64,000 nucleotides of DNA from a virus, in the IMG/VR virus record IMGVR_UViG_3300046514_000858, positions 29,746 to 93,745 of that record. One strand, 5' to 3'. The notes beneath the pieces are model-generated. The model was not told the origin of the DNA, did no database searches, and was given only the letters and a program-made list of their open reading frames with translations. How positions within the stretch are numbered: position 1 is the stretch's first letter; every line of letters begins with the position of its first letter. Below, one piece after another: positions 8,345 through 54,557 of this stretch. The position numbers and the translations under genes are program-made.

Positions 8345-9022
8345 ATGAGGATGCTGCTGGCCCTCCTATTCCTGATCCCGCAGGACTGCGAACAAGAGCA
8401 CCCCAACCGCGACGGCCTGAGTACGGACGATCTCGTCGAGGCCCTCGAAGCGGCCGATATAGACGCGGCCAACTGGCGGGCGTCGTACCATCGCATTGAC
8501 TTAGAGAACGACGAGATCATAGCGCGCATGTCGCTCGTCTCCGCCGAGTGGGAGTTCATGGTCAATGAGTGCGAGCGCGCGGGACAGGCCCACGTCCTGA
8601 ACACTCTTGAGCGCGTGCTGGTGCAGCGCTTTATCGAACCTCTCGATCTCTGGATGTCGAATCCCCATGTGACGGGCCATCCCTTCCCTCGCTTCGTCGA
8701 CGGCGAGTGCTGGTACGCCATCGTGATCCAGCCTCTGGACGCACTGAAGAGCGATCCGGTCTGGCTGAAGTTCCCGCTGGAGACGAAGAAATACGGCAGC
8801 GCCCTCGGTTATGGAGACGATAAGAACGAGAGCATCCTCCAGCTCCACTACAAGCGCACGATGCGCAAGAGCATCTTGGATTCGCTGGAGCACCATCTCG
8901 TGCTGCTATTGGACCAGCCCGAGTGCGTCACCACACTCATCACCGGAACGCCGCACCTCTACCGCCTGACCTTCCGGGAGAGCAACATAGAGCATCTCCG
9001 CAAGGAAGATCGGATCTATTGA
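8345..9022 (+). CDS. hypothetical protein with short N-terminal signal-like segment
   Basis: MRMLLALLFLIPQD; class II motif 6 nt upstream. Confidence 0.65.
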   Translation: MRMLLALLFLIPQDCEQEHPNRDGLSTDDLVEALEAADIDAANWRASYHRIDLENDEIIARMSLVSAEWEFMVNECERAGQAHVLNTLERVLVQRFIEPLDLWMSNPHVTGHPFPRFVDGECWYAIVIQPLDALKSDPVWLKFPLETKKYGSALGYGDDKNESILQLHYKRTMRKSILDSLEHHLVLLLDQPECVTTLITGTPHLYRLTFRESNIEHLRKEDRIY

Positions 9023-9474
9023 TGGGCGCGCACATCCTTGGCGATTTCCGCACGCAGCCGCACTGCGAATTGCCCGAGTCCTACTTCACCGGCCGAGACT
9101 GCTGGGTCGACTGTCGCGCGCCCGACATGTTGCACATCTCCCGGGACTGCAACATCGGCTGGGAGGCCCGGCTGGTCTGTCAGTCCCACAACCCGATGCC
9201 CGGCAAGTTCGGCGACGTGACCGCGCGCTCGATTATCATTCGGCCCAAGGCGTTTATCGCCGGGTTCGCGACGCTCTACAACTGCGAGATCGGCGAGGGG
9301 TCTGTCGTGGCGCTCGGGGCCGTGGTGAGAAGTCGGATCGTGCCGCCGTGGGTGATCGTCGAGGGGAATCCGGCGCGCATCGTGAGCAGCTTCGACCATG
9401 TGCTCGGGAAGTGGGTCGAGGTGCCGGGGGAATCAGGACTTGGGGAGAACCTTCCAATGCGTCATCGGCGGTAG
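9022..9474 (+). CDS. hexapeptide-repeat (LbH) acyltransferase
   Basis: IGEGSVVALGAVV...VPPWVIVEGNPARIV. Confidence 0.85.
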   Translation: MGAHILGDFRTQPHCELPESYFTGRDCWVDCRAPDMLHISRDCNIGWEARLVCQSHNPMPGKFGDVTARSIIIRPKAFIAGFATLYNCEIGEGSVVALGAVVRSRIVPPWVIVEGNPARIVSSFDHVLGKWVEVPGESGLGENLPMRHRR

Positions 9475-9984
9475 GACCTCGCCATCGGGCACGACGATCC
9501 CGTAGCCCGCGACCGGCACGGGCACCGAGTAGTCGGGCACGATCACCCGGCCGTACTGCTGGAGCACCGCGGGCGGGACCTTGTGGCATCCGGCCTGCCC
9601 GCAATCCAAGTCGACGTTGTTGACGTAGAGGATCCCTTCCGGGAAACGATTGTGGACGATAGCCAGCTCTTCGCCGAGCGGTCTCTCCGATCCCCACGTC
9701 GTGTCGAAGTAAAACACCGACGGCCGGGGCGCGTCGACCTCGCGCAGGTATTCAACGGAGCTGGCGACCTTGAGCTGCAGCCACGGGTACCGGCCCCGCG
9801 CGATCTCCAGCGTCTCGGCGTTGATGTCGCATCCCATCCCGATCTTGCCGGGCACGAGCTCCGAGAAGTACCCGACGGTCTCGCCCTCGTGCACGCCGAC
9901 CTCGACCCAACCCTTGATCTGGAACCGGCCGATCATCCAACCCGTGATGCACATGCGCTGGAAATTGTCTTGATGAGTGGTCAC
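9433..9984 (-). CDS. class I SAM-dependent methyltransferase
   Basis: VEVGVHEGET, GCDI, FYFD; GTG 5 nt after GTCCAAG. Confidence 0.7.
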   Translation of the reverse strand: MTTHQDNFQRMCITGWMIGRFQIKGWVEVGVHEGETVGYFSELVPGKIGMGCDINAETLEIARGRYPWLQLKVASSVEYLREVDAPRPSVFYFDTTWGSERPLGEELAIVHNRFPEGILYVNNVDLDCGQAGCHKVPPAVLQQYGRVIVPDYSVPVPVAGYGIVVPDGEVLPPMTHWKVLPKS

Positions 9985-9988
9985 GTAA

Positions 9989-10006
9989 TCTTGGACCAGT
10001 CCAAGA
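9989..10006. promoter_or_regulatory. back-to-back late motifs TCTTGGAC-CA-GTCCAAGA
   Basis: Palindrome of two GTCCAAG boxes between divergent methyltransferase genes. Confidence 0.7.
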
Positions 10007-10025
10007 GAATATCAAGGGAATAATT

Positions 10026-10631
10026 ATGATCGACAAAGGACTGCTGTGGGACGACACCAAGATGATGGGATTCTATCCCGTGATCGATCCCGTGTACGGC
10101 CCGGACTATTGGGCCAAGTACGAGGGCTACGGCAAGACGCCCATGGGCAAGGCCATCACCGCGTGCCGGGCGTGGTTCGTGGGCCAGTGCCTGAAGCCGG
10201 ACGAGCAGCTCCTTGACGTCGGCATCGGATCGGGCGACTTCGTTCGGTCCCGTCCTAACACGTTCGGGCAGGACGTGAACCCTGTCGCGCTGGCGTGGTT
10301 GCAGGGCCTCGACCTGCTCGGCAACTACGACGAGATCCCCAACTACAGTTTTTGGGACACGCTCGAACACATCTTGGACGCGAAGGGCGTCGTCGCCAAG
10401 ATCAAGAATTACTGCTTCGTCTCGCTCCCGATCTTCCGCGACCGCGAGCATGTCCTGAAGAGCAAGCACTTCCGGCCCGACGAGCATTACTGGTATTGGA
10501 CTGAAGTGGGTCTGATCAACTGGTTCGATGAGCAGGGCTTCGCTCTGCGCAGGATGACTTCGATTGAGTCAGTGCTCGGCCGCGAAGACATCATGAGCTA
10601 CGCCTTCCAGCGCTACGGCGTTCGGTCGTGA
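10026..10631 (+). CDS. SAM-dependent methyltransferase
   Basis: LLDVGIGSG, G.DVN, FWDTLEHI, KHFRPDEH. Confidence 0.85.
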   Translation: MIDKGLLWDDTKMMGFYPVIDPVYGPDYWAKYEGYGKTPMGKAITACRAWFVGQCLKPDEQLLDVGIGSGDFVRSRPNTFGQDVNPVALAWLQGLDLLGNYDEIPNYSFWDTLEHILDAKGVVAKIKNYCFVSLPIFRDREHVLKSKHFRPDEHYWYWTEVGLINWFDEQGFALRRMTSIESVLGREDIMSYAFQRYGVRS

Positions 10632-11329
10632 ACGCAGCCGTCCTTGTCCCTAGCTACGACAAGTACGCGGACGTCTGGCCCATCGCCGAGACGTGCTTCT
10701 CCCGCTTCTGGCCCGACCGCTCCATCCCCATGTACTGGATGACGAATGGGCTTCCGGTCCCGCGCATGGCCACGGGCGTGTGCGTGCCCGCGCGCGCGAG
10801 GCAAGAGTGGGGTGAGGGCATTGCTCAGGCGCTGGACTCCGTGCCCGAGGATCTGGTGCTCTTCTGGATCGAGGAGGTCTTGCTTCTCAGTCCCGTCCCC
10901 AATCAGCGGATCATGGAAGCCATTCGTCTGATGAACGAGGATCCCACCATTCAGGTCGTCAACGTCAACCGGTACTACTACGCCGCCGCTGCGGGCGATG
11001 GCTTCATTGACGCGCCCGACAAGATGTTCGACGTGATGGCGATGCCCGCGATCTACCGGAAGTCCGTGCTGAAGAGGCTGGTGTTAGAGAACCCGGACCC
11101 GCCGGAGTTCGAGCGCCGCTCGGCGATCAGCTTCCACAAGCTCTACCCCGACGGCCGAGTCCTGATCCCGGGCTCGAAGATGTTTCGCTTCTGCGACAAC
11201 CTCATGATCATCGGCCGCTGGCGGAAGTGTGCGCTGAATCACTTGCAGGAGTTGCAGATCCCGGTCGACGCGTCCATCCGCGGCGTCGCCGATGACGACT
11301 GTCGCTTCATGAACGGGACGGATCAATAA
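10628..11329 (+). CDS. putative glycosyltransferase (GT-A-like), paralog of 45282
   Basis: VLVPSYDKY.D.W...FWPD...W...LFWIEE, shared with the 45282 ORF. Confidence 0.6.
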   Translation: MNAAVLVPSYDKYADVWPIAETCFSRFWPDRSIPMYWMTNGLPVPRMATGVCVPARARQEWGEGIAQALDSVPEDLVLFWIEEVLLLSPVPNQRIMEAIRLMNEDPTIQVVNVNRYYYAAAAGDGFIDAPDKMFDVMAMPAIYRKSVLKRLVLENPDPPEFERRSAISFHKLYPDGRVLIPGSKMFRFCDNLMIIGRWRKCALNHLQELQIPVDASIRGVADDDCRFMNGTDQ

Positions 11330-11330
11330 T

Positions 11331-11419
11331 TGGTCGCAGGTGGAGGAGTCGAACCTCTGCCCACCGCCGGAGACTTGGCCTTGGGACACGGGAGCTACCC
11401 GTCCTCCGGATCACCCGCG
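11331..11419 (-). ncRNA. tRNA-like RNA / pseudo-tRNA with encoded CCA
   Basis: CGCGGGTG/CACCTGCG stem, GAGG-TTCGACT-CCTC T-arm, ACCA end; no canonical anticodon arm. Confidence 0.6.
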
Positions 11420-11594
11420 ATTTGTTGTGCACCGTATAGCTCTTCCGTCTATGCCCAGTAAAATTTACGACACTTGGGGTGCATCCGCACAAGGCCACAT
11501 TTGCTGGCGACCCACTTCCATCCCTCCCGGAGTCTGTTTCGACACAGCCAGCAGAGCGGCAGCCTTCGTTTTCTTTTAGACTTCTTCATAGCGT

Positions 11595-21987: not shown

Positions 21988-23346
21988 ATGGACCTCAAGA
22001 AGATTCAGGACGAGATCGCGCAGACGATGGCCGAAGCGCGCAAGCAGATCGAGAAGAAGAACGCCGGTCAGGGCTCCTTCAACGCCGAGGCGTTCGAAGC
22101 GAAGTTCATGAAGGCGCTCGCCGACCGCGACGCCATCCACGCCGCCGAAAAGCGGAAGGCCCCCTTCATCATGGAAGAGGAGCCCACCAAGCCCCAGCCC
22201 CGCGTGCTTCTGGAGAAGTCCGAGCGGCCGGAGGTCAAGGAGTTCCAGAAGTTCAACGACGACTGCGTCATGCTGGCGTCGCTGACCCGGAAGCACCCCA
22301 CCACGCTGGAGTACTTCCAGAAGAACAAGGACCGCTTCCTCGACGAGCGCGGCAGCACCGAAGTCGCCAAGGCCATGGCCGCCGCGACCGGCGGCTCCGG
22401 CGCGGACTGGGTCCCGACCGAGTTCAGCTCCGATCTCTACGACCGCGTCCGGCTTGACGCCGTGATCGCGGGGCAGTTCGCCGAGATCCAGATGCCGACG
22501 CCCATCTACAAGCTGCCCACGGGCGACACCGATCCGACCACGTATCTCACGCCCGAGAACACGTCGGACACCCCGAACCTGTACCCGGCGTCCACGCCCT
22601 CGACGGGCAACGTCACCCTGACCGCGTCGAAGCTGACCACGAACATGGTCTTCAGCGACGAGATCACGGAGGACTCGATCATCCCGATTCTGGAGTACCT
22701 CAAGAACCGCCTCGCGAAGTCCATGATGTACACGCTGGAGGACGCCTACCTGAACGGCGACAACTCCACGACCCACATGGACGCCGACGTCACGGTTTCG
22801 ACCGACGCCCGCAAGGTCTGGAAGGGCCTGCGCAAGCTGGCGCTGGTCTCGAAGGACACGTCCTTCTCCTCGTGGGCTCCCGCGGTGGTCGCCACCGGCA
22901 TCGGCCTGCTCCGCTCCATGCGCTCGAAGATGGGTCGCTACGGCACCCTGCCCAGCAAGCTGGCCTACATGGTCGGCGTGCGCGGCCTGATCGCGCTGCT
23001 GAGCATGCCCGAGATCATGACGCTGGAGAAGTACGGCCCGCAGGCCACGATCCTGACCGGCGAGATCGGCAAGGTCGACAACATCTCGGTGCTCGTCTCC
23101 GAGAAGTTCCGCGAGGACCTGAACGCGTCCGGCTTCAACGACTCGACGACCAACGTCCGCGCGGCGATCCTGCTCGCCCACCTCCCCGCCTTCGTGCGCG
23201 GCACGCGGCGTGGACTCCGGGTCCGGCCGTGGGTCGACCCGCGCTCCGGCACCCAGAACCTCGTGCAGGACTGGCGCGGCGACTTCCAGCCGGTCTTCGC
23301 CACGGGCCAGCCCTACGTGGTCAAGGGCGTGGACTGGGGCATCTGA
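21988..23346 (+). CDS. major capsid protein (HK97 fold) with N-terminal delta-like domain
   Basis: G.D.VPTEFS..., VTLTASKL, S.E..EDS.I, A.LNGD, G.RK; position after protease. Confidence 0.9.
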   Translation: MDLKKIQDEIAQTMAEARKQIEKKNAGQGSFNAEAFEAKFMKALADRDAIHAAEKRKAPFIMEEEPTKPQPRVLLEKSERPEVKEFQKFNDDCVMLASLTRKHPTTLEYFQKNKDRFLDERGSTEVAKAMAAATGGSGADWVPTEFSSDLYDRVRLDAVIAGQFAEIQMPTPIYKLPTGDTDPTTYLTPENTSDTPNLYPASTPSTGNVTLTASKLTTNMVFSDEITEDSIIPILEYLKNRLAKSMMYTLEDAYLNGDNSTTHMDADVTVSTDARKVWKGLRKLALVSKDTSFSSWAPAVVATGIGLLRSMRSKMGRYGTLPSKLAYMVGVRGLIALLSMPEIMTLEKYGPQATILTGEIGKVDNISVLVSEKFREDLNASGFNDSTTNVRAAILLAHLPAFVRGTRRGLRVRPWVDPRSGTQNLVQDWRGDFQPVFATGQPYVVKGVDWGI

Positions 23347-23370: not shown

Positions 23371-23417
23371 AAGACCCCGGGTCTGTCCAAGTGGATGGAC
23401 CCGGGGTTTTTCTTTTT
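23371..23417 (+). terminator. strong terminator after the capsid gene, with GTCCAAG at the hairpin apex
   Basis: Roughly 18-bp stem followed by T-rich tract. Confidence 0.85.
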
Positions 23418-23433: not shown

Positions 23434-24240
23434 ATGACGCTATACGCCTGCCTGAACGTCTATCAGGAGGAAGCGCTCCTCCCTGACTGCCTCCGCTCAA
23501 TCCGTCACGTTCTTCCGCAGGCCAAGATCATCCTGATCGACGGGGCCTATGCGTCGTGGGTCCGGCACGTCCGGATCGAAGCCGCCGTCGAGCTGTCGCT
23601 CGGCAACACCGGCATCGGCAACGACATGCTGGCGCGCTTCGTCAGCGCCGAATCGACCGACCGCACCATTGAGATCGCCAAGTCCTTCGACGTCGAGCAC
23701 ATCGTGATGCCGAAGACCCAGTGCATGTGCGGCGGCAAGAAGTTCGACTACGGGTACTACGAGAAGGGCGCGTACCTGCCGTGGCCGACCGAGTGGGAGA
23801 AGCGCAATCGATTCTTCGAGTTCGGCAAGAACGGGGACTACTACTTCATCGTCGACGGCGACGAGCGCCTGCGCGGCACCCTGCCGGAGCTCAAGGAGGA
23901 CCACTACAACGTGATGCTCCAGCGCGACGACGAAATGGGGGCCTATCCCGTGCAGCGCGTCTTCAAACACCAGCCCGGCATCAAGATGGAGGGCGCGCAC
24001 ATGGCGGTCTGGGTCGACAGCCCCGCGGGCCCGCGGCTGCTGCGTCGCCTAGATCGCAAGGACAAGCAAGGCAACGTGATCGAGAAGTCCGACGCCCACC
24101 TCCTGCAGGGCATCACCATCGACCATCTCTTCAACGAGCGCGGCTCGACCGATCAGGTCCGGCACATGGCGAAGGGCGCGTATTACCGGCATGGCCTCAG
24201 CAAGGAAGAGGAAGGCTTCCGTCAGAAGTTCGACGTATGA
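23434..24240 (+). CDS. glycosyltransferase family 2
   Basis: NVYQEE.LL..CL.SI, IDG, STDRT.EIA, KRN, VDGDE (DxD). Confidence 0.85.
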   Translation: MTLYACLNVYQEEALLPDCLRSIRHVLPQAKIILIDGAYASWVRHVRIEAAVELSLGNTGIGNDMLARFVSAESTDRTIEIAKSFDVEHIVMPKTQCMCGGKKFDYGYYEKGAYLPWPTEWEKRNRFFEFGKNGDYYFIVDGDERLRGTLPELKEDHYNVMLQRDDEMGAYPVQRVFKHQPGIKMEGAHMAVWVDSPAGPRLLRRLDRKDKQGNVIEKSDAHLLQGITIDHLFNERGSTDQVRHMAKGAYYRHGLSKEEEGFRQKFDV

Positions 24241-39471: not shown

Positions 39472-39518
39472 GGCTTCGAGTCTCGCTGTCCAAGATTGCG
39501 TACATCGCAGGACAGTGA

Positions 39519-40118
39519 ATGACCACGAAGCTGCATATCGGCTGCGGCACCGTTTATCTGGACGACTGGATCAACGTTGACGTGCCCTCCTCGGATTGTC
39601 ATCTCGCCACCGACCGCCCAGATCTCGTCGCCAAGTACCGCACCACGGCCGACGACTATTACGCCCGGCACAAGAAGACGGTCGAGGATCTTCGCAAGGG
39701 GCCGCTCCATCAGGAGTACGTCTGCGACCGCTACGGGTCGTACGAGTTCCTCCCCGCCGCGCCCGGCACGATCACCGAGATCCTCGCGCGACATAGTTTC
39801 GAGCACCTCTCCATCACGGAAGCCCGGCGTGCGCTCGTTCTTATGAATAGGGTTCTCGCGGCCGACGGACAGCTTGTGCTGGACGTGCCCGATCACGAGG
39901 CTACGCTCCGGCTCTACCGAGAGACCGGTGACGAGTTCTTCGTGCGCCATCTGCTCGGCCCACGGAGAAACGACTGGGGTTTTCATTGCATGAGCTACAC
40001 GCCGGAACGTCTGGACGGGCTCTTGCATGACTACGGCTTCTCCCTGATCGCCGACGAGCCCAACATCCACGTCTACCCCGCCTTCTGCCGTCGTTACGTG
40101 AAGCGCGAGGCGATCTGA
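39519..40118 (+). CDS. SAM-dependent methyltransferase
   Basis: KLHIGCG....DWINVD, HSFEHL, RVL...G.L...VPD. Confidence 0.85.
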   Translation: MTTKLHIGCGTVYLDDWINVDVPSSDCHLATDRPDLVAKYRTTADDYYARHKKTVEDLRKGPLHQEYVCDRYGSYEFLPAAPGTITEILARHSFEHLSITEARRALVLMNRVLAADGQLVLDVPDHEATLRLYRETGDEFFVRHLLGPRRNDWGFHCMSYTPERLDGLLHDYGFSLIADEPNIHVYPAFCRRYVKREAI

Positions 40119-40813
40119 TGGATCAGCCCCTTCTGAGCGTGATCGTCGGCACTATTGATCGCCCTCAGCACATCGCCAACTGCATCGAATCCGTCCGGCG
40201 GCACACGACCATTCCTTACGAGCTCATTGTCGGCGACGCATCCGAGCGGCATCCTCCACTGGTTTCCAGCGGCCCCCTACGCGTCGTACGGGAGAAGCCT
40301 CGTCTCGGCCACGCCAAGGGCTACAACCAGCTCTTCCGGCAGGCCCGCGGCAAGTGGGTCTGCTGGCTGAACGACGACGCGCGCGTCACGCCCGGCTGGG
40401 CCAACAACGCGGTCGCGTTCATGGAGTACACCCCATGGGTCGGCCTCGGGTGCTTCTACTACTCCGAGCACGGCTGCTGCTTCCACCTCTCCCAGTATCA
40501 GGATTTCATCTACGCCAACTTCGGGATCCTGTCGAAGCAATTCGGCGACCGCATCGGGTGGTTCGATGAGTGCGTCCGGATGTATGGGGCCGACAACTCC
40601 ATCACCTTCAAGACGATCCTCGCCGGGAAGGGCGTGTCCGGCATCCCCGGCGCGAAGATCATGCACGAGCCCATCTCGGACGACATTCGCCGCGGCAACA
40701 TGGCGGGACAAAAATCCGACGAGAAAGCGCTTTTGGACAAGTATCGACCGTTCATGTGGGAAATGAAGAAGTCCATGGCGCGCCTTCCGCAGTCACCATT
40801 GAGGATTCCATGA
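40118..40813 (+). CDS. glycosyltransferase family 2
   Basis: LSVIV.T.DR, YELIV.D, YN....ARG..V..LNDD, G.FDE....Y..D. Confidence 0.88.
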   Translation: MDQPLLSVIVGTIDRPQHIANCIESVRRHTTIPYELIVGDASERHPPLVSSGPLRVVREKPRLGHAKGYNQLFRQARGKWVCWLNDDARVTPGWANNAVAFMEYTPWVGLGCFYYSEHGCCFHLSQYQDFIYANFGILSKQFGDRIGWFDECVRMYGADNSITFKTILAGKGVSGIPGAKIMHEPISDDIRRGNMAGQKSDEKALLDKYRPFMWEMKKSMARLPQSPLRIP

Positions 40814-41226
40814 TCAAGAAGACGACGATCTCGTTCCACGATACCGGCGACCGCGGTGATCTCGCCGTCTTCGATCTGCCGGGCCCGGAGTGGCAGGGCG
40901 TCCGGACATGTCCATTCGAGCCCCGCCGGATCTTCTGGATCACGAACATGCAGCAGCTCGGCCGCCGGGGCGGCCACGCGCATCGCAAGGGCGAACAGTT
41001 CCTCTTCTGCCCGACCGGCGGCGTCCAGATCGCGTACCAGTGCCCGGAAGGCAAGGGGCTGGTGGTGCTGAAGGGCTCCAGCGTCGGCGCGTACGTCCCG
41101 CCTCTGCACTGGCTGGACATCCGGAACCTGCACACGAAGACGGTGCTCGTCGTGCTGGCCTCGAATCCGTATGACGAAGCGGACTATATCCGCGACCCCG
41201 AGGAGTTCAAGAGGCTCTGCAAGTGA
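40810..41226 (+). CDS. fdtA: dTDP-4-keto-6-deoxyhexose 3,4-isomerase (FdtA/QdtA, cupin)
   Basis: D.RG.L, PF..RRIFWI, RG.HAH....Q, YVPP..W, VLAS..YDEADYIRD. Confidence 0.88.
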   Translation: MIKKTTISFHDTGDRGDLAVFDLPGPEWQGVRTCPFEPRRIFWITNMQQLGRRGGHAHRKGEQFLFCPTGGVQIAYQCPEGKGLVVLKGSSVGAYVPPLHWLDIRNLHTKTVLVVLASNPYDEADYIRDPEEFKRLCK

Positions 41227-42299
41227 AGGTTCCCTACCACGACCTGCAGCCGATCCTCGACATCGAATCCTCCGCCATCGCGGACGCCATGGCTCGCGTC
41301 ATGAAGTCGGGCCGCCTGATCCTCGGGCCGGAAGTGGAAGCATTCGAGTACGAGCTCGCCGAGCGGATGGGATACGCCCACGCCATCGGAGTGGCCAACG
41401 GCACGGACGCCATTGAGCTCGTGCTGGCCCAGCGCCCCTCACACGGCGGCAACGAGGTGCTAGTCCCGGCCAACAGCGCGCCCGCGACGGTGACCGCGGT
41501 CATGCGCGCCGGATGCAGGCCGGTATACTGCGAGGTCCAGCGCAACGGGATTATCAACCCGGAGAAGCTGGGCTACTTCCTGACGCCCCAGACCTTCGCC
41601 GTGCTGGCAGTGGACCTGTATGGACAGCCCTGCGACTACCGGGCGCTGGCCAACTTCGCACACGCGCGCCAGCTCGCGCTCTACTCCGACGGCGCGCAGG
41701 CGTTCGGATCTCAGAGCACCGCCCGACTCTACGTCAACGCCCAGACCATCAGCTTCTACCCGACCAAGGCGCTCGGCGCGCTTGGGGACGGGGGCGCGAT
41801 CCTGACCAACGATCAGGGTCTGATGCTCGACCTCCGGGCCCGGCGCTTCTACGGGATCTACGACCGCCGCACCCTGCAGCAGGACTTCCTCGGCTGCAAC
41901 TCCCGGCTGGACGAGCTGCAGGCCGCGATCCTGCGTGAGCGCATGGATGTCGCCGAGAAGTGGTGCGAGGTCCGCCGCGCGGTGGCGTGGTTCTACCACA
42001 AGTGGATCCGGACCGATCTCCAGCGCCGCTCCTACGACCACAACCAGAACTACCACATCTTCAACATCCACTGCCAAGATCGGGACGGATCCCGCGAGCG
42101 GCTGGCCGGGCGAGAGATCGAGACGGCCATCCATTATCCGATCCCGGCGCACCGCCAGTCCCCCAGCGCCGCGCCGTATCGCGACTTGCCGATCACTGAA
42201 GACTTCTGTCGGACGACGCTGTCACTACCGATCTGGGTCGGGATGTCCGACGACCAGATCCATAGTGTAGTGGGCGGCGTCAACGAGTTGTGCAAATGA
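41223..42299 (+). CDS. DegT/DnrJ/EryC1/StrS PLP sugar aminotransferase (FdtB-like)
   Basis: LGPEVEAFE, VANGTDA, DLYGQ, D.AQA, SFYPTK.LGA.GDGG, NSRLDELQAA, IHYP.P.H. Confidence 0.93.
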   Translation: MKVPYHDLQPILDIESSAIADAMARVMKSGRLILGPEVEAFEYELAERMGYAHAIGVANGTDAIELVLAQRPSHGGNEVLVPANSAPATVTAVMRAGCRPVYCEVQRNGIINPEKLGYFLTPQTFAVLAVDLYGQPCDYRALANFAHARQLALYSDGAQAFGSQSTARLYVNAQTISFYPTKALGALGDGGAILTNDQGLMLDLRARRFYGIYDRRTLQQDFLGCNSRLDELQAAILRERMDVAEKWCEVRRAVAWFYHKWIRTDLQRRSYDHNQNYHIFNIHCQDRDGSRERLAGREIETAIHYPIPAHRQSPSAAPYRDLPITEDFCRTTLSLPIWVGMSDDQIHSVVGGVNELCK

Positions 42300-43351
42300 A
42301 GATCGCCTTCGTCGACACCTACTATCCTGACGTCCTCGTCGGGCGTGACAAGGTCTCGTACGCGTCGCGCATGGCCGATCTGATGCGCCTCCACTTCGGG
42401 ACGGCGTACTACTACTCCGACGCGTTCAAGAAGATGGGCTGGACAGCCATCGACATCATCGGGAACGACACGGATGGCCGCAAGCTCTGGTGCGCCGAGG
42501 CGGGCCTCACGTACGAGAACGATCAGGCGTCCGTCATCGACCAGCTCGTCATCTTCGAGCCGGACATCGTTTACATGCAGGACCTCGGCTTCTTCGAACC
42601 CACCCAGATCGCGGGTCTCAAGAAGCGCCTGTACTGGAAGTTTGTGTCCCAGCACTCCTGCCCGTGGGCCGGAGACAACCGCATTAAGGCGTTCGACGCC
42701 GTCTTCTCGTCCTTCCCGCACTACCTTCCGCGGATCTCCGCGCTGGGCGTTCAGACGTCCATGCTGCCCATCGCTTTCGGCCACCGCGTGCTGGAGCACA
42801 TCAAGCCCCAGCGCCGCGACCTACCCGTGACGTTCGTCGGGGGTCTGAACGGCACGAGCGGGCACTGGGCGCAGGGCACTGTGATGATGGAGCATGTCGC
42901 TGCCGAGGTCCCGGCCTTCAAGTGGTGGGGCTACTTCATCGGCGAGCCGCGCAACTACCCGGCGCTCCAGCGCACCTATCAAGGCCCGGCGTGGGGCATG
43001 AAGATGTACAACGTCTACGCCCGGTCGCAGATGGTGATCAATCGCCACGGCGAGGTTGCCGAAGGCTACTCCAACAACATGCGCATGTTCGAGGCGACCG
43101 GCTGCGGCGCGCTTCTGCTCACCGAGCAGTCGAAGAACCTGCACGATTACTTCGCGCCGGGCATGGAATGCGTCGCGTACCGTGAGCCCGCGGAGCTGGT
43201 CGACATTATCAACAAGCAACTCCTCTGGCAGCCCGAGCTGGTGGCCGACATCGCGAAGCGCGGACAGGCTCTCACGCTGGAGAACCACACGTACGAAAAG
43301 CGGCTCGCCCAGATCGAACCCTTCCTGCAGAAGATCGCGGCGGGCAAATGA
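42296..43351 (+). CDS. GT-B glycosyltransferase (CgeB/Glyco_trans_1_2-like)
   Basis: V.FVG, WG..MY.VYARS..VIN.H, NMRMFEATGCG..LLT, HTY..R. Confidence 0.88.
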   Translation: MKIAFVDTYYPDVLVGRDKVSYASRMADLMRLHFGTAYYYSDAFKKMGWTAIDIIGNDTDGRKLWCAEAGLTYENDQASVIDQLVIFEPDIVYMQDLGFFEPTQIAGLKKRLYWKFVSQHSCPWAGDNRIKAFDAVFSSFPHYLPRISALGVQTSMLPIAFGHRVLEHIKPQRRDLPVTFVGGLNGTSGHWAQGTVMMEHVAAEVPAFKWWGYFIGEPRNYPALQRTYQGPAWGMKMYNVYARSQMVINRHGEVAEGYSNNMRMFEATGCGALLLTEQSKNLHDYFAPGMECVAYREPAELVDIINKQLLWQPELVADIAKRGQALTLENHTYEKRLAQIEPFLQKIAAGK

Positions 43352-44274
43352 AGCACTACTGCACGCTGTTCGATCTGAACTACGCCGCCAAGGGCCTCGC
43401 CCTGTACGAGTCCATCGCCCGTCACTCTTCGGAGGACTTCATCCTCTGGACCGTGCCGATGAACGACAAGACGTGGGATTTCCTGCAGCACACCAAGAAT
43501 CTCCGACCGAACATGGCGGTCTTCCGCGACAGCGAGGTTTTCAACGACCGCTTCTGCAAGGCGGCATATGATCGAGAGATCAGCTACCGCTGCTTCATGG
43601 CGGCCCCTTGGCTACTACACCATCTCCTCGACATGCCGAGCATCGACGAGGCGACCTACCTTGACGCCGATCTGGGATTCTACGCCGACCCCAAGATCGC
43701 GCACGACGAGATGGGCGACAACTCCGTCGGCATCGTGCCTCACCGCTTCATGCCGCACGACGTCGCCCGGCTGTCGCCCAACGGCTGGTTCAACGTCTCT
43801 TGGGTCACGGTGAAGCGCGACAAGTGGGGGATGCCGATCCTGTCGCGCTGGCGCGAGCAGACGCTGGAGAAGTGCGACCGCGAAAGCTGCGGCGATCAGA
43901 AGTACCTAAACGAGTGGCCGACCTTCTGGAACGAAGACGGCGACGGCGTGCACATCTTCAGCCATGAAGGCATTGGCGTCGCTCCGTGGAACGCCATGAA
44001 ATATCGTTTCTTCCCGGGCCCCAAGATCGCGCTGCAGGACGGCCCGGGGTTCGGATCGTGGCAGAAAAAGGAGATCGTCTTCTACCACTACCACGAGCTG
44101 AAGCGCCGCGCGAAGAACGATTATCAACTGACCGGCTACCCGCTACCCGAGGCGTGCAAGGAGCTGATCTACAAGCCGTACATAGCCCAACTTGAGGTGG
44201 GCGAGGATCTCATCACCGAATACGAAAGGACATCGCCATGGTCAAAATCCACTCCCTCCGCACCGACGACCTGA
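43348..44274 (+). CDS. GT-A glycosyltransferase
   Basis: YCTLFD.NY...GLALY.S, YLDADL.F, G.FN...V, GDQKYL..WP, APWN, FYH.H. Confidence 0.85.
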   Translation: MKHYCTLFDLNYAAKGLALYESIARHSSEDFILWTVPMNDKTWDFLQHTKNLRPNMAVFRDSEVFNDRFCKAAYDREISYRCFMAAPWLLHHLLDMPSIDEATYLDADLGFYADPKIAHDEMGDNSVGIVPHRFMPHDVARLSPNGWFNVSWVTVKRDKWGMPILSRWREQTLEKCDRESCGDQKYLNEWPTFWNEDGDGVHIFSHEGIGVAPWNAMKYRFFPGPKIALQDGPGFGSWQKKEIVFYHYHELKRRAKNDYQLTGYPLPEACKELIYKPYIAQLEVGEDLITEYERTSPWSKSTPSAPTT

Positions 44275-45188
44275 AGCTCCTCGGATACACCCAGTTCTCC
44301 GGGCTCAACTTCAAGGGCGCGACGATGGTCGACACCATCGAAGAGGCCGATGCCGTCTTCATCCCGCTCCCGACCCGACCCGTGCTCGACCCGAGCCAGC
44401 GCGGCATCCACATGGGCGCGCCGGAGCTGCAGGAGATCATCACCAAGTTCGGGCTGGAGGAGAAGCGCGTCATCACGTACGATTGCAGCGACTTCACGGC
44501 GGACTACACCGCCACCAACCCCAACTGCATCTTCATCCGCTGCAGCGCAAAGGGCTGGTACGTCCGGCAGATGCCGCGGACCATCTCGTGGCCGTGGCCC
44601 GTCGAAAACTGGGCCGACGTCGTCCCGATGCCGGAAGGTGGATTCAAGTACGACGTCTCCGGCCACATGTGGCTCAGCTCCTCCACCCGAGTGAACGCCA
44701 TCGACAGCGTCCGGGAGACCTTCGGCGCGCGGGCGGACCTCGTGACCCGCAAGGAGTTCTGGGGCTACCTCGAACGCGACGACCTCGCCCGGGCCATGCC
44801 TATGAAGGTCGCCATGAAGAAGTCCATGCAGGAGAGCCGAGTCTCCCTCTGCCCGGCGTCGATCCCCAACGTCTTCCCGTACCGGTTCTTCGAGGCTCTG
44901 AGCGCCGGACGCGTGCCTGCGCTGTTCTGCTCCGACTACGTCCTACCGTTCGGCACCAAGGTGAAGTACAACGACTTCTGCCTGATGTTCGGCGAGGAGG
45001 ACAGCAGGCAGGCCGGGCCTCTGATCAAGGAGTGGCTGTCGCGTCACACAGACGACGAGATCATCGCCATGGGCCTGCGCGGGCGCGAGGCGTTCCAGCA
45101 GTGGCTCAACGTGCGTGATCGCGGCGACGAGCTCATGACGTACGCTATCGAAGAGGCGCTGCGATACGACGGGCTACTCAAGCCCTAA
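44238..45188 (+). CDS. exostosin (GT47)-like glycosyltransferase
   Basis: M..S...LCP......YRFFEALSAGRVP......VLPF. Confidence 0.75.
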   Translation: MVKIHSLRTDDLKLLGYTQFSGLNFKGATMVDTIEEADAVFIPLPTRPVLDPSQRGIHMGAPELQEIITKFGLEEKRVITYDCSDFTADYTATNPNCIFIRCSAKGWYVRQMPRTISWPWPVENWADVVPMPEGGFKYDVSGHMWLSSSTRVNAIDSVRETFGARADLVTRKEFWGYLERDDLARAMPMKVAMKKSMQESRVSLCPASIPNVFPYRFFEALSAGRVPALFCSDYVLPFGTKVKYNDFCLMFGEEDSRQAGPLIKEWLSRHTDDEIIAMGLRGREAFQQWLNVRDRGDELMTYAIEEALRYDGLLKP

Positions 45189-45281: not shown

Positions 45282-45968
45282 GTGCACATCGTAGTCGCAT
45301 CGACTGCATCGTACTCAGACGCGTGGGGCCCGTTTCAGGCGCTCTTCCGGATGTTCTGGAAGGACTGTCCGTTCCCGGTCACGCTCGTCACCGACCGCGG
45401 CACAGAACCGTGGGATCTCGGCCAGCGCTTCGACGTCGGTGATGATCGAGGATGGTGCAAGAACCTCCTCGCCTTCGTGAAGGACGTGCCCGAGGACAAG
45501 GTCCTCCTCCTGCAGGAAGACTTCTGGCTCAACTTCCCGACCGACACGGCGTTTATCAATCGCGCCGTCGCAGCTATGAATGCCGACCCCAAGATCGCGG
45601 CGTTCCGCATCTATCCCTGCCCCGGGCCAGAGGGACCGATCAACGAGGAGTATGGTCTTCTCCGGCCGGGCTCGGCCTACCGCGTGAGCTGTCAGGCCAC
45701 GATCTGGCGCAAGGACGAGCTCGTCAACCTCCTCGAACGATTCGATCACCCGCGGGACTTCGAGATCCAAGGCACCATCTACGCCAACGCCGAGCGCGCA
45801 CACTTGAAGTACGTCGCCGTCGAGGAGCGCGATCCGAACAAGTGGCCGATCCAGTATTACTGCTCCGCCATCACCCGCGGAGAGTTCGACCGGGGCGCGC
45901 TGGAGTTCTGCAAGAAAATGGGCGTGCCGGTGCATGAAGGCCGCCCCATCATGGGCGGTCCAAGGTAA
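45282..45968 (+). CDS. putative glycosyltransferase, paralog of 10628
   Basis: GTG 5 nt after GTCCAAG (45270); VAS..SY.D.W..F..LF..FW.DCPF, LLLQEDF.L, YR.S.QA.IW.K, FE..G. Confidence 0.7.
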   Translation: MHIVVASTASYSDAWGPFQALFRMFWKDCPFPVTLVTDRGTEPWDLGQRFDVGDDRGWCKNLLAFVKDVPEDKVLLLQEDFWLNFPTDTAFINRAVAAMNADPKIAAFRIYPCPGPEGPINEEYGLLRPGSAYRVSCQATIWRKDELVNLLERFDHPRDFEIQGTIYANAERAHLKYVAVEERDPNKWPIQYYCSAITRGEFDRGALEFCKKMGVPVHEGRPIMGGPR

Positions 45969-47322: not shown

Positions 47323-47332
47323 GGAGATCACC

Positions 47333-48342: not shown

Positions 48343-48909
48343 ATGAGCCGCGAAACCATGAAGCCCTGTAAGTCCTGCGGGTCCACCTGCGATGGACAGT
48401 TCAGCGCCTTCTGCTCCACCAAGTGCAAGACCGGCCAGCAGGCCGTCGAGCAGCTCGGCACCCAGCTCATCAACCTGAAGCCCGCCGCCGTGAAGCACAT
48501 CTACTTCTACGACTTCGCGTTCGGCGACCTCTGCGATCTGTTCACGACGTACCTGATCAAGCATCTGAACGCCTCCGACCTGACGAAGCAGCGGGTCATC
48601 CTGCGCGCGCTGGAACGCGTCGAGCGGGCGATCACGACCAAGCTGGACAAGTGGAATCCCGCCCCCGCGATCCGCAAGACGATCAAGGACGAGATCGAGG
48701 CGCTGTACCACGCCAACATGCTGATCTGGCGGTGGAAGGATGAGCACTTCACTCATGGCCCGGAGTATCGCCTCCAGACTCCCACCGACGAAACGTGGGC
48801 CGACTTCGTGGACGCCTACGCCCTGCGTGACGCCGCGCGCCGTCAGCTCGACCGTCTCGTCGAAGGTTTCACCATGACGGACAAAACCTATGATCAGCCC
48901 CGATCCTAA
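48343..48909 (+). CDS. hypothetical protein with N-terminal Zn-finger
   Basis: CKSCG...FCS.KC; helical C-terminus. Confidence 0.6.
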   Translation: MSRETMKPCKSCGSTCDGQFSAFCSTKCKTGQQAVEQLGTQLINLKPAAVKHIYFYDFAFGDLCDLFTTYLIKHLNASDLTKQRVILRALERVERAITTKLDKWNPAPAIRKTIKDEIEALYHANMLIWRWKDEHFTHGPEYRLQTPTDETWADFVDAYALRDAARRQLDRLVEGFTMTDKTYDQPRS

Positions 48910-49849
48910 GAGAGTCCTCGTCACTGGGGGCTACGGATTCGTCGGCCGCAACCTTCTTGGCTACCTGAAGCAGAACCATCCTGAAGTCAACGCCATGTAC
49001 TTCAGCTCCAAGAAGTACGACCTGACGGATCTCGCCGAGACGCGCGCCCTCTTCAAATTCTCCAAGCCCGACGCCGTCATCCATCTCGCGGCGACGTGCG
49101 GCGGGATCTTCGCCAACATGATGAACCCGGCGACGTTCTGGGGAGAGAATCTACGCATGGGCCAGAACATCCTCGACGCGTCGGTCGAGTTCGGTGTCCA
49201 GAAGCTGGTCATGATGGGCTCGGTCTGCAGCTATCCCAAGGAGCCCGCCACGATGCCATTCGCCGAGGACCAGCTCTGCATGGGCTGGCCCGAGATCACC
49301 AACCGGCCGTACGGGATTGCCAAGCTGGCGCTGCTGGAAGGCTGCCGCGCGTACAACGCCCAGCACAACCTCCAGTACACCTACCTTATCCCGACGAACA
49401 TGTACGGCCCGGCCGACAACTTCGAGCTGGAGTCGAGCCATGTCATCCCGGCGATGATGCGCAAGTTCCACGAGGCCGTGGCCTTGAAACGGAGCGAGGT
49501 GGTGCTCTGGGGCGACGGCACCCCCTCCCGGGACTTCCTGTACGTCCACGACTGCGCCCGGGCGATCTACAAGGCGCTGGACACGGACACCGGCACCCAG
49601 CCCCTCAATCTGGGCAGCGGGCAGGAGACCACCATGACCGGCCTCGTCCAGATGCTGCGGTCCGTGACCGGCTTCGAGGGCGACGTGGTCTGGAACCTCG
49701 ACCGCCCAAACGGACAGCCCCGGCGGTTCATCGACTACCGGGAGGCCCAGCGGGTCATGCACTGGACGCCCCTGACCACCACTTTCGAGGGGATCCAGAA
49801 GACCTACGCGTGGTACCGCAAAAACGGTGCCATGACCCTCCCGAACTAA
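48890..49849 (+). CDS. fcl: GDP-L-fucose synthase family epimerase/reductase
   Basis: VTGG.GFVG, IHLAA..GGI.AN, GSVCSYPK, YGIAK, N.YGP.DNF....SHVIPA, WGDG.P.RDFLYV.D, PNGQPRR. Confidence 0.93.
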   Translation: MISPDPKRVLVTGGYGFVGRNLLGYLKQNHPEVNAMYFSSKKYDLTDLAETRALFKFSKPDAVIHLAATCGGIFANMMNPATFWGENLRMGQNILDASVEFGVQKLVMMGSVCSYPKEPATMPFAEDQLCMGWPEITNRPYGIAKLALLEGCRAYNAQHNLQYTYLIPTNMYGPADNFELESSHVIPAMMRKFHEAVALKRSEVVLWGDGTPSRDFLYVHDCARAIYKALDTDTGTQPLNLGSGQETTMTGLVQMLRSVTGFEGDVVWNLDRPNGQPRRFIDYREAQRVMHWTPLTTTFEGIQKTYAWYRKNGAMTLPN

Positions 49850-49973
49850 GCCGGACGGGCGTTCTTACATGGCAAGGCCCTTCCGGCTGCGCCAGAGGCC
49901 CGCTGTGGGCCCGTACGGACGAGGGATGACCTAGAACACCAACCTGACCCGTTTGACGCGCTGGAGGGCATCT

Positions 49974-52807: not shown

Positions 52808-53742
52808 TGAGCTCCATTCTCGACGTCTTGGATCGCAACGGAGTGACCGCCCGGCCGACCGGCAAAGCGTCGGAGTACGTCGTCACTTGTCCTGTATGTG
52901 CCAAGCCCAAGTTGTACGTCAACGTGGAGAAGAAGGTCTGGGTCTGCTACGTCTGCGGAGATGGCGGCTACGCATCGAAGCTCTTCAAGCTCTTCGGCAT
53001 CAAGCACCGCGAAGCCTTCAAGCCGGACCTCGACACGCTTCGCCAGCGGGCGCACGACAAGATGGCCGCCAAGCATGGGGTCGTCGAGGCGGTGGAGGAG
53101 ATCCATCCGCTGCCCGACGAGTTCAAGCCCATCATCCCGGGGTTCGCCGCCATGGGCATCGTCGGCACCACGATCTACGAGTACCTCCTTCGCCGCGGCA
53201 TGACGAACGAGCAGATCCTATCGTGGAAGGTGGGCTACTGCGCCGAGGGCCGGTACCGCGGCTGCTGCATCATCCCGGTCACCGACAAGTCCGGCGCGGT
53301 CGTGACCTTCCAAGGCCGCCGCGTCATGGGAGTCGGCCAGAAGAACGCCAACCCTCCGGGCGGTGGGGGCTTCCTGTTCAACACCGAGTTCGCGCAGGGA
53401 CACATGGGGATCGTGGTAGTCGAGGGTCCCTTCGACGCGGCATCGATCCACACGCGCCTCAGCAAGACGATGGGGATCTCCAGCATCGCTCTACTCCGGC
53501 ACAGTATCGCCGAGGAGGGCGCGGCCTACATCGCGAGGATTATCAAGCCCAAGATCGTCTGGGTCGGACTCGACCCGGACGTCGAGAACACGTACATGCA
53601 CAAAGTTGGGGGAGCGCTTCGGGCGAACGGGTGCCCGGAGGTCTTTGTCGCGCTCTTCCCGCAGGACCCCGATGAGCTACCGACTGATGCGCTGCTGGAC
53701 TGCCTCGACAAGGCCAAGCCCGCGCGCCAACTGAGGAAATGA
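52807..53742 (+). CDS. DNA primase (Zn finger plus TOPRIM)
   Basis: CPVC...CYVC, YL..RG, IIP, FQGR, VVEGPFDA, LDPD, DP.E. Confidence 0.88.
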   Translation: MSSILDVLDRNGVTARPTGKASEYVVTCPVCAKPKLYVNVEKKVWVCYVCGDGGYASKLFKLFGIKHREAFKPDLDTLRQRAHDKMAAKHGVVEAVEEIHPLPDEFKPIIPGFAAMGIVGTTIYEYLLRRGMTNEQILSWKVGYCAEGRYRGCCIIPVTDKSGAVVTFQGRRVMGVGQKNANPPGGGGFLFNTEFAQGHMGIVVVEGPFDAASIHTRLSKTMGISSIALLRHSIAEEGAAYIARIIKPKIVWVGLDPDVENTYMHKVGGALRANGCPEVFVALFPQDPDELPTDALLDCLDKAKPARQLRK

Positions 53743-54557
53743 TGAGCGACAAGAAGATTGTGGAAGTGATCGGCCTCGGCGAGATCGGCGGCGCAGTATT
53801 CGGCGAGCTCCTGAACGGTCTCAACAAATTCGACCTGATCGGCGTGGACGTCAACCCGGCCAAGTTCGACACCACGCTCGGCGGAGTGGCCTACTACACC
53901 GAGCCCGTCCCGGCCGACGTGTACATCATCTCGGTCTGGACGATGGACCAGCTCATGAAGGTGATCGATCAAGTCGGGCCGGACGCGCAGAAGCGCAATG
54001 CGCTGGTCGTGATCGAGAGCACCATCGAGATCGCTCGCCTCGACGAGATCGCCGACAAGATGCAGTACTACGGACTTCTGGACTGCCTCGTCACCATGCC
54101 GCATCGCTGGAATCCGGGCGATCCCCACCACGGCGTGTTCAACCAGAACCGTGTGCTAGGCACATTCACGACAGCGGCGGCGACGAAGGCTATCAACTTC
54201 TACACCCACTTCATGCCGATCACCAACATCCATGTCACGGACTTCTGGACCGCGGCGGCGTCGAAGGTGGCGGAGAACGCATGGCGGGCGCTGGAGATTA
54301 TCATGTCGCAGGAACTCCTGCTGTCGTGCGCCCGCAACGGCTACGACTTCGTCCGGCTGCGCAAGGCGATGAACACCAAGTGGAACATCGACGTCAAGGA
54401 GGCTCGGGACGGGGTGAAGGGCAAGTGCCTGCCGAAGGATCTCGCCTTCTTCTGCGATGCCTTCCCTGACCACACACTGGCGCGGATCTCCAAGCTCCTC
54501 AACGAGGACTACATTCAGAAGTGGAAGCCGAATGATTTGGGGTCTCCGCGTTCATGA
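53739..54557 (+). CDS. UDP-glucose/GDP-mannose dehydrogenase family protein lacking the C-terminal domain
   Basis: IGLGEIG, IEST, P.R..PG, K..EN, G..GKCLPKD. Confidence 0.8.
   Translation: MMSDKKIVEVIGLGEIGGAVFGELLNGLNKFDLIGVDVNPAKFDTTLGGVAYYTEPVPADVYIISVWTMDQLMKVIDQVGPDAQKRNALVVIESTIEIARLDEIADKMQYYGLLDCLVTMPHRWNPGDPHHGVFNQNRVLGTFTTAAATKAINFYTHFMPITNIHVTDFWTAAASKVAENAWRALEIIMSQELLLSCARNGYDFVRLRKAMNTKWNIDVKEARDGVKGKCLPKDLAFFCDAFPDHTLARISKLLNEDYIQKWKPNDLGSPRS

Follow-up and report, generated by a model that had tools for sequence, protein, structure and literature searches.

Two separable glycan gene modules in an uncultured tailed phage and their candidate role in virion glycosylation

The DNA analysed here is a 64,000-nucleotide window (contig bases 29746-93745) of IMGVR_UViG_3300046514_000858, the genome of an uncultured tailed phage that is represented in IMG/VR by a 93,745-bp contig with 127-bp direct terminal repeats and a GC content of ~62%. 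An earlier note on this window had described the sugar genes between 9022 and 54557 as one near-complete glycan pathway spread over five loci, and had proposed that its product is assembled in the cytoplasm on the virion. We find that these genes comprise at least two separable systems rather than one demonstrated pathway: a glycosyltransferase (GT) of family 2 that is built into the head operon, and a six-gene cassette that also occurs in unrelated phage lineages. For comparison, just one sister genome was available in IMG/VR (G001, 96.8 kb; the phage under study is G000).

The main sugar block lies after the tail genes, as had been noted before. It begins with an operon of seven genes (39519-45188) that are coupled end to end by start/stop overlaps and stand behind a GTCCAAG box at 39488..39494 (plus strand, as are all features below unless stated otherwise). 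The cassette consists of a methyltransferase and GT2, GT1-like, GT8-like, GT47-like and GT-A enzymes, with an FdtA/DegT pair inserted within it. Its methyltransferase (39519..40118) matches Pfam Methyltransf_23/11 below the cut-off, and its orthologues match Methyltransf_23 in 7 of 9 cases (best Methyltransf_11 match, 7.9e-9); this is the most conserved cassette gene, with 53-64% identity across lineages. The GT2 (40118..40813; Pfam Glycos_transf_2, 1.6e-14) and the GT1-like enzyme of GT-B type (42296..43351; Glyco_trans_1_2, 3.6e-28) each have orthologues in 9 loci. The GT8/Nucleotid_trans-like GT-A enzyme (43348..44274) carries a DXD motif in the sequence YLDADLGFY and matches viral clusters of this class in the ESM Atlas (0.98 by features; template modelling (TM) score 0.88 by structure), and 2-3 of its orthologues have weak Pfam matches. 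The GT47 (exostosin)/RXYLT1-like enzyme (44238..45188) matches Exostosin_GT47 at 2.3e-5 as a single protein; its orthologues match this family in 11/11 cases (best 2.2e-10) and RXYLT1_C in 9.

The last cassette gene (45282..45968) has its own GTCCAAG box at 45270 and encodes a GT-A fold transferase with a QEDF motif. Its family comprises ~39 homologues without a Pfam domain, for which an AlphaFold model (predicted local distance difference test (pLDDT) score 93.5) exhibits a GT-A fold. Foldseek matches of this model include B4GALNT1, SpsA, GnT-I and TarS, and also KdsB-type cytidylyltransferases, whereas the family profile has no match among PDB sequences. A paralogue at 10628..11329 (BLASTP 7e-12 to 45198-45968) forms one row of the modelled alignment. 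Because of the KdsB matches, the transferase chemistry of this pair is not fully settled, and a KdsB-like nucleotidyltransferase is possible. Direct searches of Pfam, PHROG, NCBIfam and PDB sequences yielded no match for the open reading frames (ORFs) at 10628, 23395, 43348, 45198 and 9433 (minus strand), and so these assignments rest on profiles, folds and orthologue sets. Even so, the seven GTs named in the earlier note (10628, 23434, 40118, 42296, 43348, 44238 and 45282) are all upheld, with strong to moderate support.

The seventh GT occupies a different setting. A divergent GT2 of the GT-A type (23434..24240), a candidate protein-directed enzyme, directly follows the major capsid gene (21988..23346; PHROG major head protein, 7.8e-26; 24% identity to T5-like capsids), and its stop codon overlaps the start (ATGA) of the Neck1/tail-completion gene (24237..24806; phrog_5, 4.8e-13). 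The position next to the capsid gene had been pointed out previously, and the capsid-GT-neck order recurs in 8/8 loci (this phage, G001, L012, L013, L014, L015, L016 and L017), with the GT gene 41-105 nt 3' of the capsid gene and 5' of the connector genes. These loci range from 41 to 62% in GC content, and the capsids of the seven further loci are 34-47% identical to that of this phage. The GT2 is thus a fixed head-operon component in a phage clade, as judged by gene order.

Although this GT2 has no direct Pfam match, a profile of its 17 homologues, which likewise have no Pfam domain, matches the Listeria protein GmaR (1.5e-5). An alignment-based AlphaFold model (pLDDT 91.8) yields Foldseek matches that are all GT-A/GT2 enzymes, led by SunS/ThuS (1e-7). 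A profile search of 1.84 billion representatives returned 453 clusters, and of 30 distant relatives sampled from these, 10 carry PF00535 (best 2.6e-34) and 6 carry PF13704. A DG, a DxDE and two His residues are invariant across all 30 (D154-x-D156-E157 in this protein), which argues for an active enzyme. As modelled, the protein is a member of GT family 2 with a GT-A fold. Between the capsid and GT2 genes lies an intrinsic terminator (23371..23410) with an 18-pair stem and a T-run, inside whose hairpin a GTCCAAG box is found at 23385. This arrangement fits expression of the GT in catalytic rather than stoichiometric amounts. A read-through fusion of capsid and GT2 was considered and rejected as a general mechanism: the two frames are separated by a single stop only in this phage (TGA) and G001 (TAA), whereas in L012 they are in frame with two stops, and in L014-L017 they lie in other frames. 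A complex prediction for the capsid protein and the GT2 gave a median score of 0.04 (mark, 0.32), which is not evidence either way.

A third group of genes forms an accessory tailoring locus (9022-11329) that holds an acetyltransferase, two methyltransferases and the GT-A paralogue described above. The left-handed beta-helix (LbH, hexapeptide) acetyltransferase (9022..9474, with a TGATG start overlap) falls below the Pfam Hexapep cut-off (0.0025), and its earlier assignment is confirmed by an NCBIfam WcaF-family match (9.7e-9). It is nearest to sugar O-acetyltransferases of the WcaF/WbbJ/maltose O-acetyltransferase group (the NeuD/PglD-type match is 0.0099), and a 56% identical orthologue in G001 is headed by a GTCCAAG box. 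The methyltransferases proposed at 9433, 10026 and 39519 were likewise all recovered, with 9433 on the minus strand. This gene (9433..9984, minus strand) encodes a class I S-adenosylmethionine (SAM) methyltransferase with a CmcI/rhamnosyl-O-methyltransferase-like fold (TM 0.83-0.84 to class I methyltransferase and RMNT_CmcI clusters in the ESM Atlas) and has a 57% identical orthologue in G001. The second (10026..10631) has a class I SAM motif I (LDVGIGSGDF) and a Methyltransf_23 match below the cut-off (1.9e-4). It was examined as a paralogue of the cassette methyltransferase, and this was rejected since kinship is not detectable. By tblastn, the sugar genes of G001 are syntenic and 46-73% identical, except for the 10026/10628 pair, which only the phage under study carries.

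The GTCCAAG box links sugar genes to virion genes. It occurs 25 times versus 6.95 expected, and 0/100 shuffles reach this count; its extended form is GTCCAAG-RRRR-TAG/TA. The box heads the protease, scaffold, adaptor and tail-tube genes, and it also heads 23434, 39519, 45282, 10026 (box at 9999) and 9433 (6 nt upstream, on the minus strand). It is not found ahead of 9022, 48890 or 53739. Units headed by the box hold 12 of the 16 sugar genes, in agreement with the earlier remark that most stand behind it.

The cassette is found in at least 10 other viral contigs, including unrelated lineages, with GC contents of 39-62%. The same gene order is present in L020, L021, L022, L023, L026, L027, L028 and L030, and in part in L024 and L029; the methyltransferase/GT2 pair is inverted in this phage and G001 relative to the other loci, and FdtA/DegT and Fcl are optional. 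Comparison of flanking regions detected nothing else in common between most of these contigs and this phage. One carrier, G010, is a complete, unrelated 58.8-kb phage with terminal repeats, in which the cassette lies between portal and collagen-like fibre genes on one side and tail chaperone and fibre genes on the other. The head-operon GT2 family is absent from G006 and G010, both complete cassette-bearing phages, and therefore the two modules are separable; contigs of 98.8 kb and 83.9 kb appear to hold both GT families. Genomes G002-G005 are 18-53% complete, such that a cassette search there is uninformative. Among 50,697 cultured-phage records, megablast with the sugar block (39000-55000) and tblastn with 23434, 39519, 42296, 43348 and 44238 returned no match, and 40118 returned two weak, unannotated tblastn matches. 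In the cellular genomes of ~185,000 GTDB species, the 45282 family alone was detected, in five Bacteroidota metagenome-assembled genomes (MAGs). From these gene comparisons, the two-module architecture and a cassette common to unrelated lineages are what is new here.

The sugar-supply enzymes represent late steps of two branches. An FdtA-type cupin (40810..41226; a nucleoside diphosphate (NDP)-4-keto-6-deoxyhexose 3,4-ketoisomerase; ATGA overlap with the GT2) and a pyridoxal-phosphate (PLP) sugar aminotransferase of the DegT/DnrJ/EryC1 family (41223..42299; GTGA overlap with FdtA) had been recognized before, and both are securely matched in Pfam (PF05523, 7.3e-28, and PF01041, 5.6e-74). The adjacent pair corresponds to that of the dTDP-3-amino-3,6-dideoxyhexose (Fuc3N/Qui3N) pathway, with FdtA/QdtA beside its aminotransferase. 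The best NCBIfam matches of DegT are PseC and DesI, all below the cut-off, and the transaminase may act at C3 or C4. The sole LbH protein (9022) lies 31 kb from this pair and looks like an O-acetyltransferase rather than an FdtC/QdtC N-acyltransferase. For the second branch, the proposed GDP-fucose synthase is retained as a GDP-L-fucose synthase-like short-chain dehydrogenase/reductase (SDR; 48890..49849; 3,5-epimerase/4-reductase; GDPFucSynFcl 4.9e-83; Pfam Epimerase 1e-57), whereas its exact function is less certain: the GDPFucSynFcl score of 279 bits is below the 500-bit equivalog cut-off, and hence its nucleotide and sugar specificity are inferred. The proposed NDP-sugar dehydrogenase (53739..54557; Pfam UDPG_MGDP_dh 4.8e-11; TIGR03026 positions 95-279/413) has N-terminal and central domains, with the Rossmann motif and the catalytic-Cys sequence GKCLPKD kept. 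However, it is a truncated protein of 272 amino acids that lacks the C-terminal nucleotide-sugar-binding domain, and so departs from the three-domain architecture of UDP-glucose/GDP-mannose dehydrogenases; its G001 orthologue aligns over 240 amino acids. Both genes are embedded among replication genes, and the start of the dehydrogenase gene overlaps the primase stop (ATGA).

The description of the pathway as near-complete was overstated. A six-frame search of the phage found no NTP_transferase (PF00483, RmlA type) and neither an RmlB 4,6-dehydratase nor Gmd, the Fcl-like gene being the only SDR. Lacking both a nucleotidyltransferase and a 4,6-dehydratase, the two branches must start from host intermediates. 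The branch assignments are backed by gene neighbours in L022, where RmlB-like and RmlA-like genes come after FdtA-DegT, and Gmd (1.4e-114) comes directly after the Fcl-like orthologue. This contig (IMGVR_UViG_3300029288_005873) is a 441.9-kb jumbo-phage contig with a tubulin/PhuZ-like gene. Its positions 1-20651 hold a glycan island of at least 18 kb that contains the same cassette families, an 1129-amino-acid protein in which GT1 and GT2 are fused, the full dTDP branch (RmlA/RmlB-like, FdtA, DegT) and the full GDP-fucose branch (Gmd, Fcl). The ORF at 48343-48909 accompanies the Fcl-like gene in L021 and was tried as a pathway member; its product is zinc-ribbon/helical with no sugar-enzyme signature, and it was rejected.

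As the earlier note had stated, no flippase, polymerase or undecaprenyl-phosphate (Und-P) transferase is evident. The tape measure is the only phage protein predicted to contain several hydrophobic segments (WecA/MraY proteins, PF00953, were judged by hydropathy rather than by a hidden Markov model), the initiating phosphoglycosyl transferase Bac_transf (PF02397) was not found, and the membrane parts of a surface-polysaccharide or serotype-converting locus (Wzx/Wzy, ABC or GtrA/B/C type) are missing from it. Enzymes that create a DNA acceptor base were also sought: the phage has no thymidylate synthase homologue (PF00303), the Tet_JBP dioxygenase (PF12851) is absent from the five cassette phages G000, G001, G006, G007 and G010, and the C5 DNA methyltransferase (PF00145) is absent from G000 and G006 and elsewhere remote from the cassette. 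Together, these absences disfavour both surface-polysaccharide export and DNA glycosylation.

Virion proteins were inspected for possible acceptor sites. The motif D[VI]TN occurs 8 times in this phage versus 0.41 expected, always in tail proteins (window positions 26658-36812: tail tube residue 97; Dit residue 145; hub residues 588, 841, 865, 925 and 1028; and residue 92 of the protein encoded at 36528-37010), and 10 times versus 0.42 in G001. The tail tube and Dit sites lie at the same positions in G001 and L012; L016 keeps both and L014 only that of Dit, while the sequence around the motif is otherwise unrelated from protein to protein. The cassette phages G010 and G006 have zero copies. Therefore, D[VI]TN was rejected as the sequon of the cassette, and it follows the head-operon GT2 clade instead, for which it could be an acceptor site or else a structural motif. 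The capsid has a conserved Ser/Thr-rich loop at approximately residues 186-208, and this loop and the tail proteins are candidate acceptors. A collagen-like fibre was rejected as a universal acceptor, since it precedes the cassette in no other loci than L023, L027 and L028. In these three contigs, collagen-like (G-X-Y) proteins are encoded at L023 5-373, L027 5-139 and 3055-3642, and L028 1961-2911; by analogy with spore and giant-virus collagen-like glycoproteins, they are candidate acceptors there.

The remaining genes place these modules in an ordinary tailed-phage genome. In the window, the structural genes begin with terminase (15169), a portal-MuF fusion (16965), protease (20715) and a scaffold-like gene (21518), and continue beyond the capsid and neck genes with adaptor (24841), tail tube (26370), tape measure (28070), Dit (30571) and hub (32021). 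Replication genes comprise an exonuclease (47333), an SF2 helicase (49953), DnaB (51476), a DnaG-type primase (52807-53742) and a DnaE-type polymerase (59909). The primase, with zinc finger and TOPRIM, lies inside a 664-amino-acid ORF that overlaps dnaB and is the true gene at this place; a 262-amino-acid ORF at 52887-53675 was discarded as an out-of-frame artefact. Three small conserved genes follow the cassette (45970-47322; GTCCAAG box at 45958) and have no family match; single hydrophobic segments occur in each of 45934-46272 and 46269-46862, and these small genes may encode lysis or membrane-associated late proteins. A tRNA-Pro with the unusual anticodon AGG (54562-54695) lies immediately 3' of a GTCCAAG box. 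The first 30 kb of the genome carries genes for gp32-like single-stranded DNA-binding, RecA/UvsX-like, SbcC-like and Dam-like methyltransferase proteins, and an ADP-ribosyltransferase exoenzyme-type protein (PF03496, 4e-17) is encoded at genome positions 10744-11505, outside the window (L002). A 200-amino-acid protein (12706-13308; 51% identity in G001) is scarcely more than a tyrosine-recombinase catalytic domain (PF00589, 9.7e-22) and may be an integrase remnant, dimer resolvase or invertase.

We consider it somewhat probable, on circumstantial evidence, that these genes form a membrane-independent cytoplasmic system that decorates the phage's own virion proteins. In this respect the proposal of the earlier note remains the best-supported reading, although its view of one near-complete pathway is not upheld. 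Several lines of evidence lead to it: the conserved capsid-GT-neck synteny in 8/8 loci together with translational coupling of GT2 and Neck1; the box common to sugar and structural genes; the protein or peptide substrates of the nearest solved relatives of the head-operon GT2; the position of the cassette inside the structural module of the unrelated complete phage G010; and the lack of both export machinery and an enzyme that makes a DNA acceptor base. In such a system, the host would supply dTDP-4-keto-6-deoxyglucose and GDP-4-keto-6-deoxymannose. FdtA and DegT would turn the first into a dTDP-3-amino-3,6-dideoxyhexose, and the Fcl-like enzyme would convert the second to GDP-L-fucose. Late in infection, soluble GTs would assemble the chain directly on its protein acceptor (capsid and tail proteins being candidates), with one GT acting as primer, a role for which the head-operon GT2 is a candidate in its clade. 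Methyl and acetyl groups would cap the glycan, which would then be a methylated, possibly acetylated hetero-oligosaccharide with 6-deoxy and amino-deoxy sugars.

Several observations weigh against virion decoration. Acceptors are at candidate level, and the two modules, being separable, could serve different products. The main block stands where the tail module gives way to replication genes, a site at which accessory "moron" genes are typically found. The Fcl-like and dehydrogenase genes lack the late box and are coupled to genes of the replication module. Their placement fits an early build-up of precursors, but keeps DNA alive as a target at low odds. The box itself is taken as a putative late promoter from its position, and the tyrosine-recombinase domain protein makes a temperate lifestyle possible. 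Soluble GTs also serve pathways linked to undecaprenyl pyrophosphate (Und-PP) that use host initiating and export enzymes. Moreover, some DNA-glycan clusters are also near structural genes, and for 65% of phage GT contigs a base-modifying enzyme is missing from the vicinity (bioRxiv 10.1101/2023.12.21.572611). GT clusters near structural genes are thus not automatically protein-directed, and the neighbourhood argument is supportive rather than decisive.

A bolder version of virion decoration can be advanced only tentatively. A mobile, self-contained cassette, with a methyltransferase and five GTs from four or five families, would be common to tailed phages of soils and waters and would build one defined methylated oligosaccharide in the cytoplasm, directly on virion proteins. 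Add-on sugar modules (FdtA/DegT, Fcl either with Gmd or on its own, and RmlA/B) would diversify it, and the head GT2 would be a clade-specific protein-priming enzyme that may read the tail D[VI]TN motif or the capsid Ser/Thr loop.

The same enzymes could instead remodel the host envelope, which we regard as unlikely. The soluble GTs and tailoring enzymes would then use as their substrate a lipid-linked intermediate of the host (Und-PP-linked O-antigen, capsule, teichoic-acid or arabinogalactan-type), relying on the initiating transferase, flippase or ABC transporter, and ligase of the host, with superinfection block or serotype change as the outcome. Most surface-polysaccharide GTs are soluble or peripheral, so the lack of an initiating phosphoglycosyl transferase, flippase, polymerase or Gtr-type protein counts against this explanation without excluding it. 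FdtA/DegT, Fcl, WcaF-like acetyltransferases and NDP-sugar dehydrogenases belong to the usual repertoire of O-antigen and capsule genes, the main block ends the tail module where accessory genes usually lie, and a tyrosine-recombinase domain protein is present. However, a box in common with structural genes would imply expression too late to help a lytic infection, and in 8/8 loci one of the GTs is a fixed member of the head operon. A few Bacteroidota MAGs encode the 45282 family, but cellular genomes otherwise essentially lack the cassette (5 lone matches to one gene). Moreover, carriers of the cassette span 39-62% GC, and all of their hosts would have to possess Wzx/Wzy or ABC exporters compatible with a single foreign glycan.

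Some other acceptor, which appears quite improbable, might be a non-virion protein (a host target or phage effector), or a small molecule or lipid (a secondary metabolite or glycolipid); alternatively, the head GT2 might be a capsid-bound decoration protein of GT fold, with the cassette unrelated to it. Separability of the modules and a toxin-like ADP-ribosyltransferase encoded by the phage are compatible with this, and SunS, the best structural match, glycosylates a secreted prophage-encoded bacteriocin, but beside the GT2 there is neither a glycocin-like precursor peptide nor an export gene. Decoration proteins, too, are typically encoded just behind the capsid gene, whereas the invariant catalytic residues argue for an active enzyme, the upstream terminator argues against stoichiometric structural amounts, and the cassette is embedded in structural modules of two unrelated lineages. 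Least probable of all is hypermodification of phage DNA, in which the GTs would glycosylate a modified base and so protect the DNA against restriction, in the manner of T-even phages and of the methyltransferase/5mYOX/GT clusters of Pyle et al. Exonuclease, helicase, DnaB and primase genes do surround the Fcl-like and dehydrogenase genes, yet the GT genes carry the structural-gene box and not a replication-gene context. Phage GT-A and GT-B relatives of lipopolysaccharide (LPS) and teichoic-acid GTs can place mono- to trisaccharides on 5-hydroxymethylcytosine (5hmC), in clusters some of which lie near structural genes (bioRxiv 10.1101/2023.12.21.572611), and the thymidine of Yersinia phage YerA41 is reported to bear a substitution of ~1 kDa (PMC9023294). 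Five to seven different GTs nevertheless exceed any DNA glycan yet described. Furthermore, the genome has no hydroxymethylase of the thymidylate synthase family, Tet_JBP is missing from five cassette phages, two of them complete, and no C5 methyltransferase is found in this phage or G006, or near the cassette elsewhere.

To our knowledge, virion glycosylation by phages has chemical proof for only a few mycobacteriophages, whose virion glycans shield the particles from antibodies. If virion proteins are indeed the target here, then elaborate glycan synthesis resembling that of giant viruses would occur in tailed phages of ordinary size, the glycan would be built by a cassette that moves between unrelated phage lineages, and a protein-directed GT2 would have become a fixed part of a head operon. 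Such a result would matter for the surface chemistry of phages, for their recognition by receptors and the immune system, for their stability in the environment and for phage engineering, and would offer enzymologists new soluble GTs and a compact gene set to reconstitute. Should the cassette prove mobile and self-contained as tentatively proposed, elaborate virion glycosylation would be widespread and horizontally exchanged rather than an actinophage peculiarity. The comparative data also offer a practical rule, by which the presence of ThyS or 5mYOX separates DNA-directed from protein-directed phage GT clusters.

Known pathways and systems resemble this gene set in part. Of the dTDP-3-amino-3,6-dideoxyhexose pathway (RmlA, RmlB, FdtA/QdtA, FdtB/QdtB, FdtC/QdtC), the phage has adjacent, coupled FdtA and DegT genes without RmlA or RmlB, and of the GDP-L-fucose pathway (Gmd, Fcl) it has an Fcl-like SDR without Gmd. 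Giant viruses (chlorovirus PBCV-1 with Vp54; Mimivirus, whose fibrils carry virus-made amino-deoxy sugars) combine nucleotide-sugar enzymes, including Fcl/Gmd-type and aminotransferase steps, with many GTs, and in the cytoplasm equip their virion proteins with complex methylated glycans. In contrast to the phage described here, which keeps only late steps, these viruses infect eukaryotes, have much larger genomes and encode their sugar pathways in full; the L022 jumbo-phage contig likewise differs in having complete versions of the sugar branches. The DNA-glycan clusters of uncultured phages (Pyle et al., bioRxiv 10.1101/2023.12.21.572611) are alike in their GT-A and GT-B relatives of LPS and teichoic-acid GTs, and sometimes hold epimerases or second GTs or lie near structural genes, but the phage described here lacks the base-activating enzymes that define them (ThyS or 5mYOX, with or without a C5 methyltransferase).

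At the enzyme level, the head-operon GT2 is comparable to GmaR, the Listeria flagellin O-GlcNAc transferase, and to the glycocin S-glycosyltransferases SunS and ThuS, which are soluble, have the same GT-A core and DxD motif, and act directly on polypeptides. However, it is only 11-14% identical to these enzymes (TM ~0.4) and has its own insertion and C-terminal helical region. The TPR domain of GmaR is presumably lacking in the head-operon GT2 family.

Among known systems, virion glycosylation in mycobacteriophages (Che8 gp108-110, Corndog gp35-38 and Myrna) comes closest and follows the same logic. These systems are reported to use soluble GTs, with a methyltransferase in some, encoded in or beside virion structural genes; assembly is cytoplasmic without export machinery, and the known acceptors are capsid and tail tube proteins (PMC12363180, PMC11256854, PMC12619734, PMC13313380). 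Here too, phage GTs are encoded in and next to virion structural genes. By tblastn with 23434, 39519, 40118, 42296, 43348 and 44238, no homology to the GTs of Che8, Corndog and Myrna was detected at the BLAST level apart from the two weak, unannotated matches of 40118, a comparison of sequences and not of structures. The capsid of this phage has no obvious C-terminal glycan tail. The system described here differs further in having seven GTs rather than two to four, in the addition of FdtA, DegT, Fcl-like and dehydrogenase tailoring enzymes, and in its division into two separable modules, one of them a cassette common to unrelated lineages.

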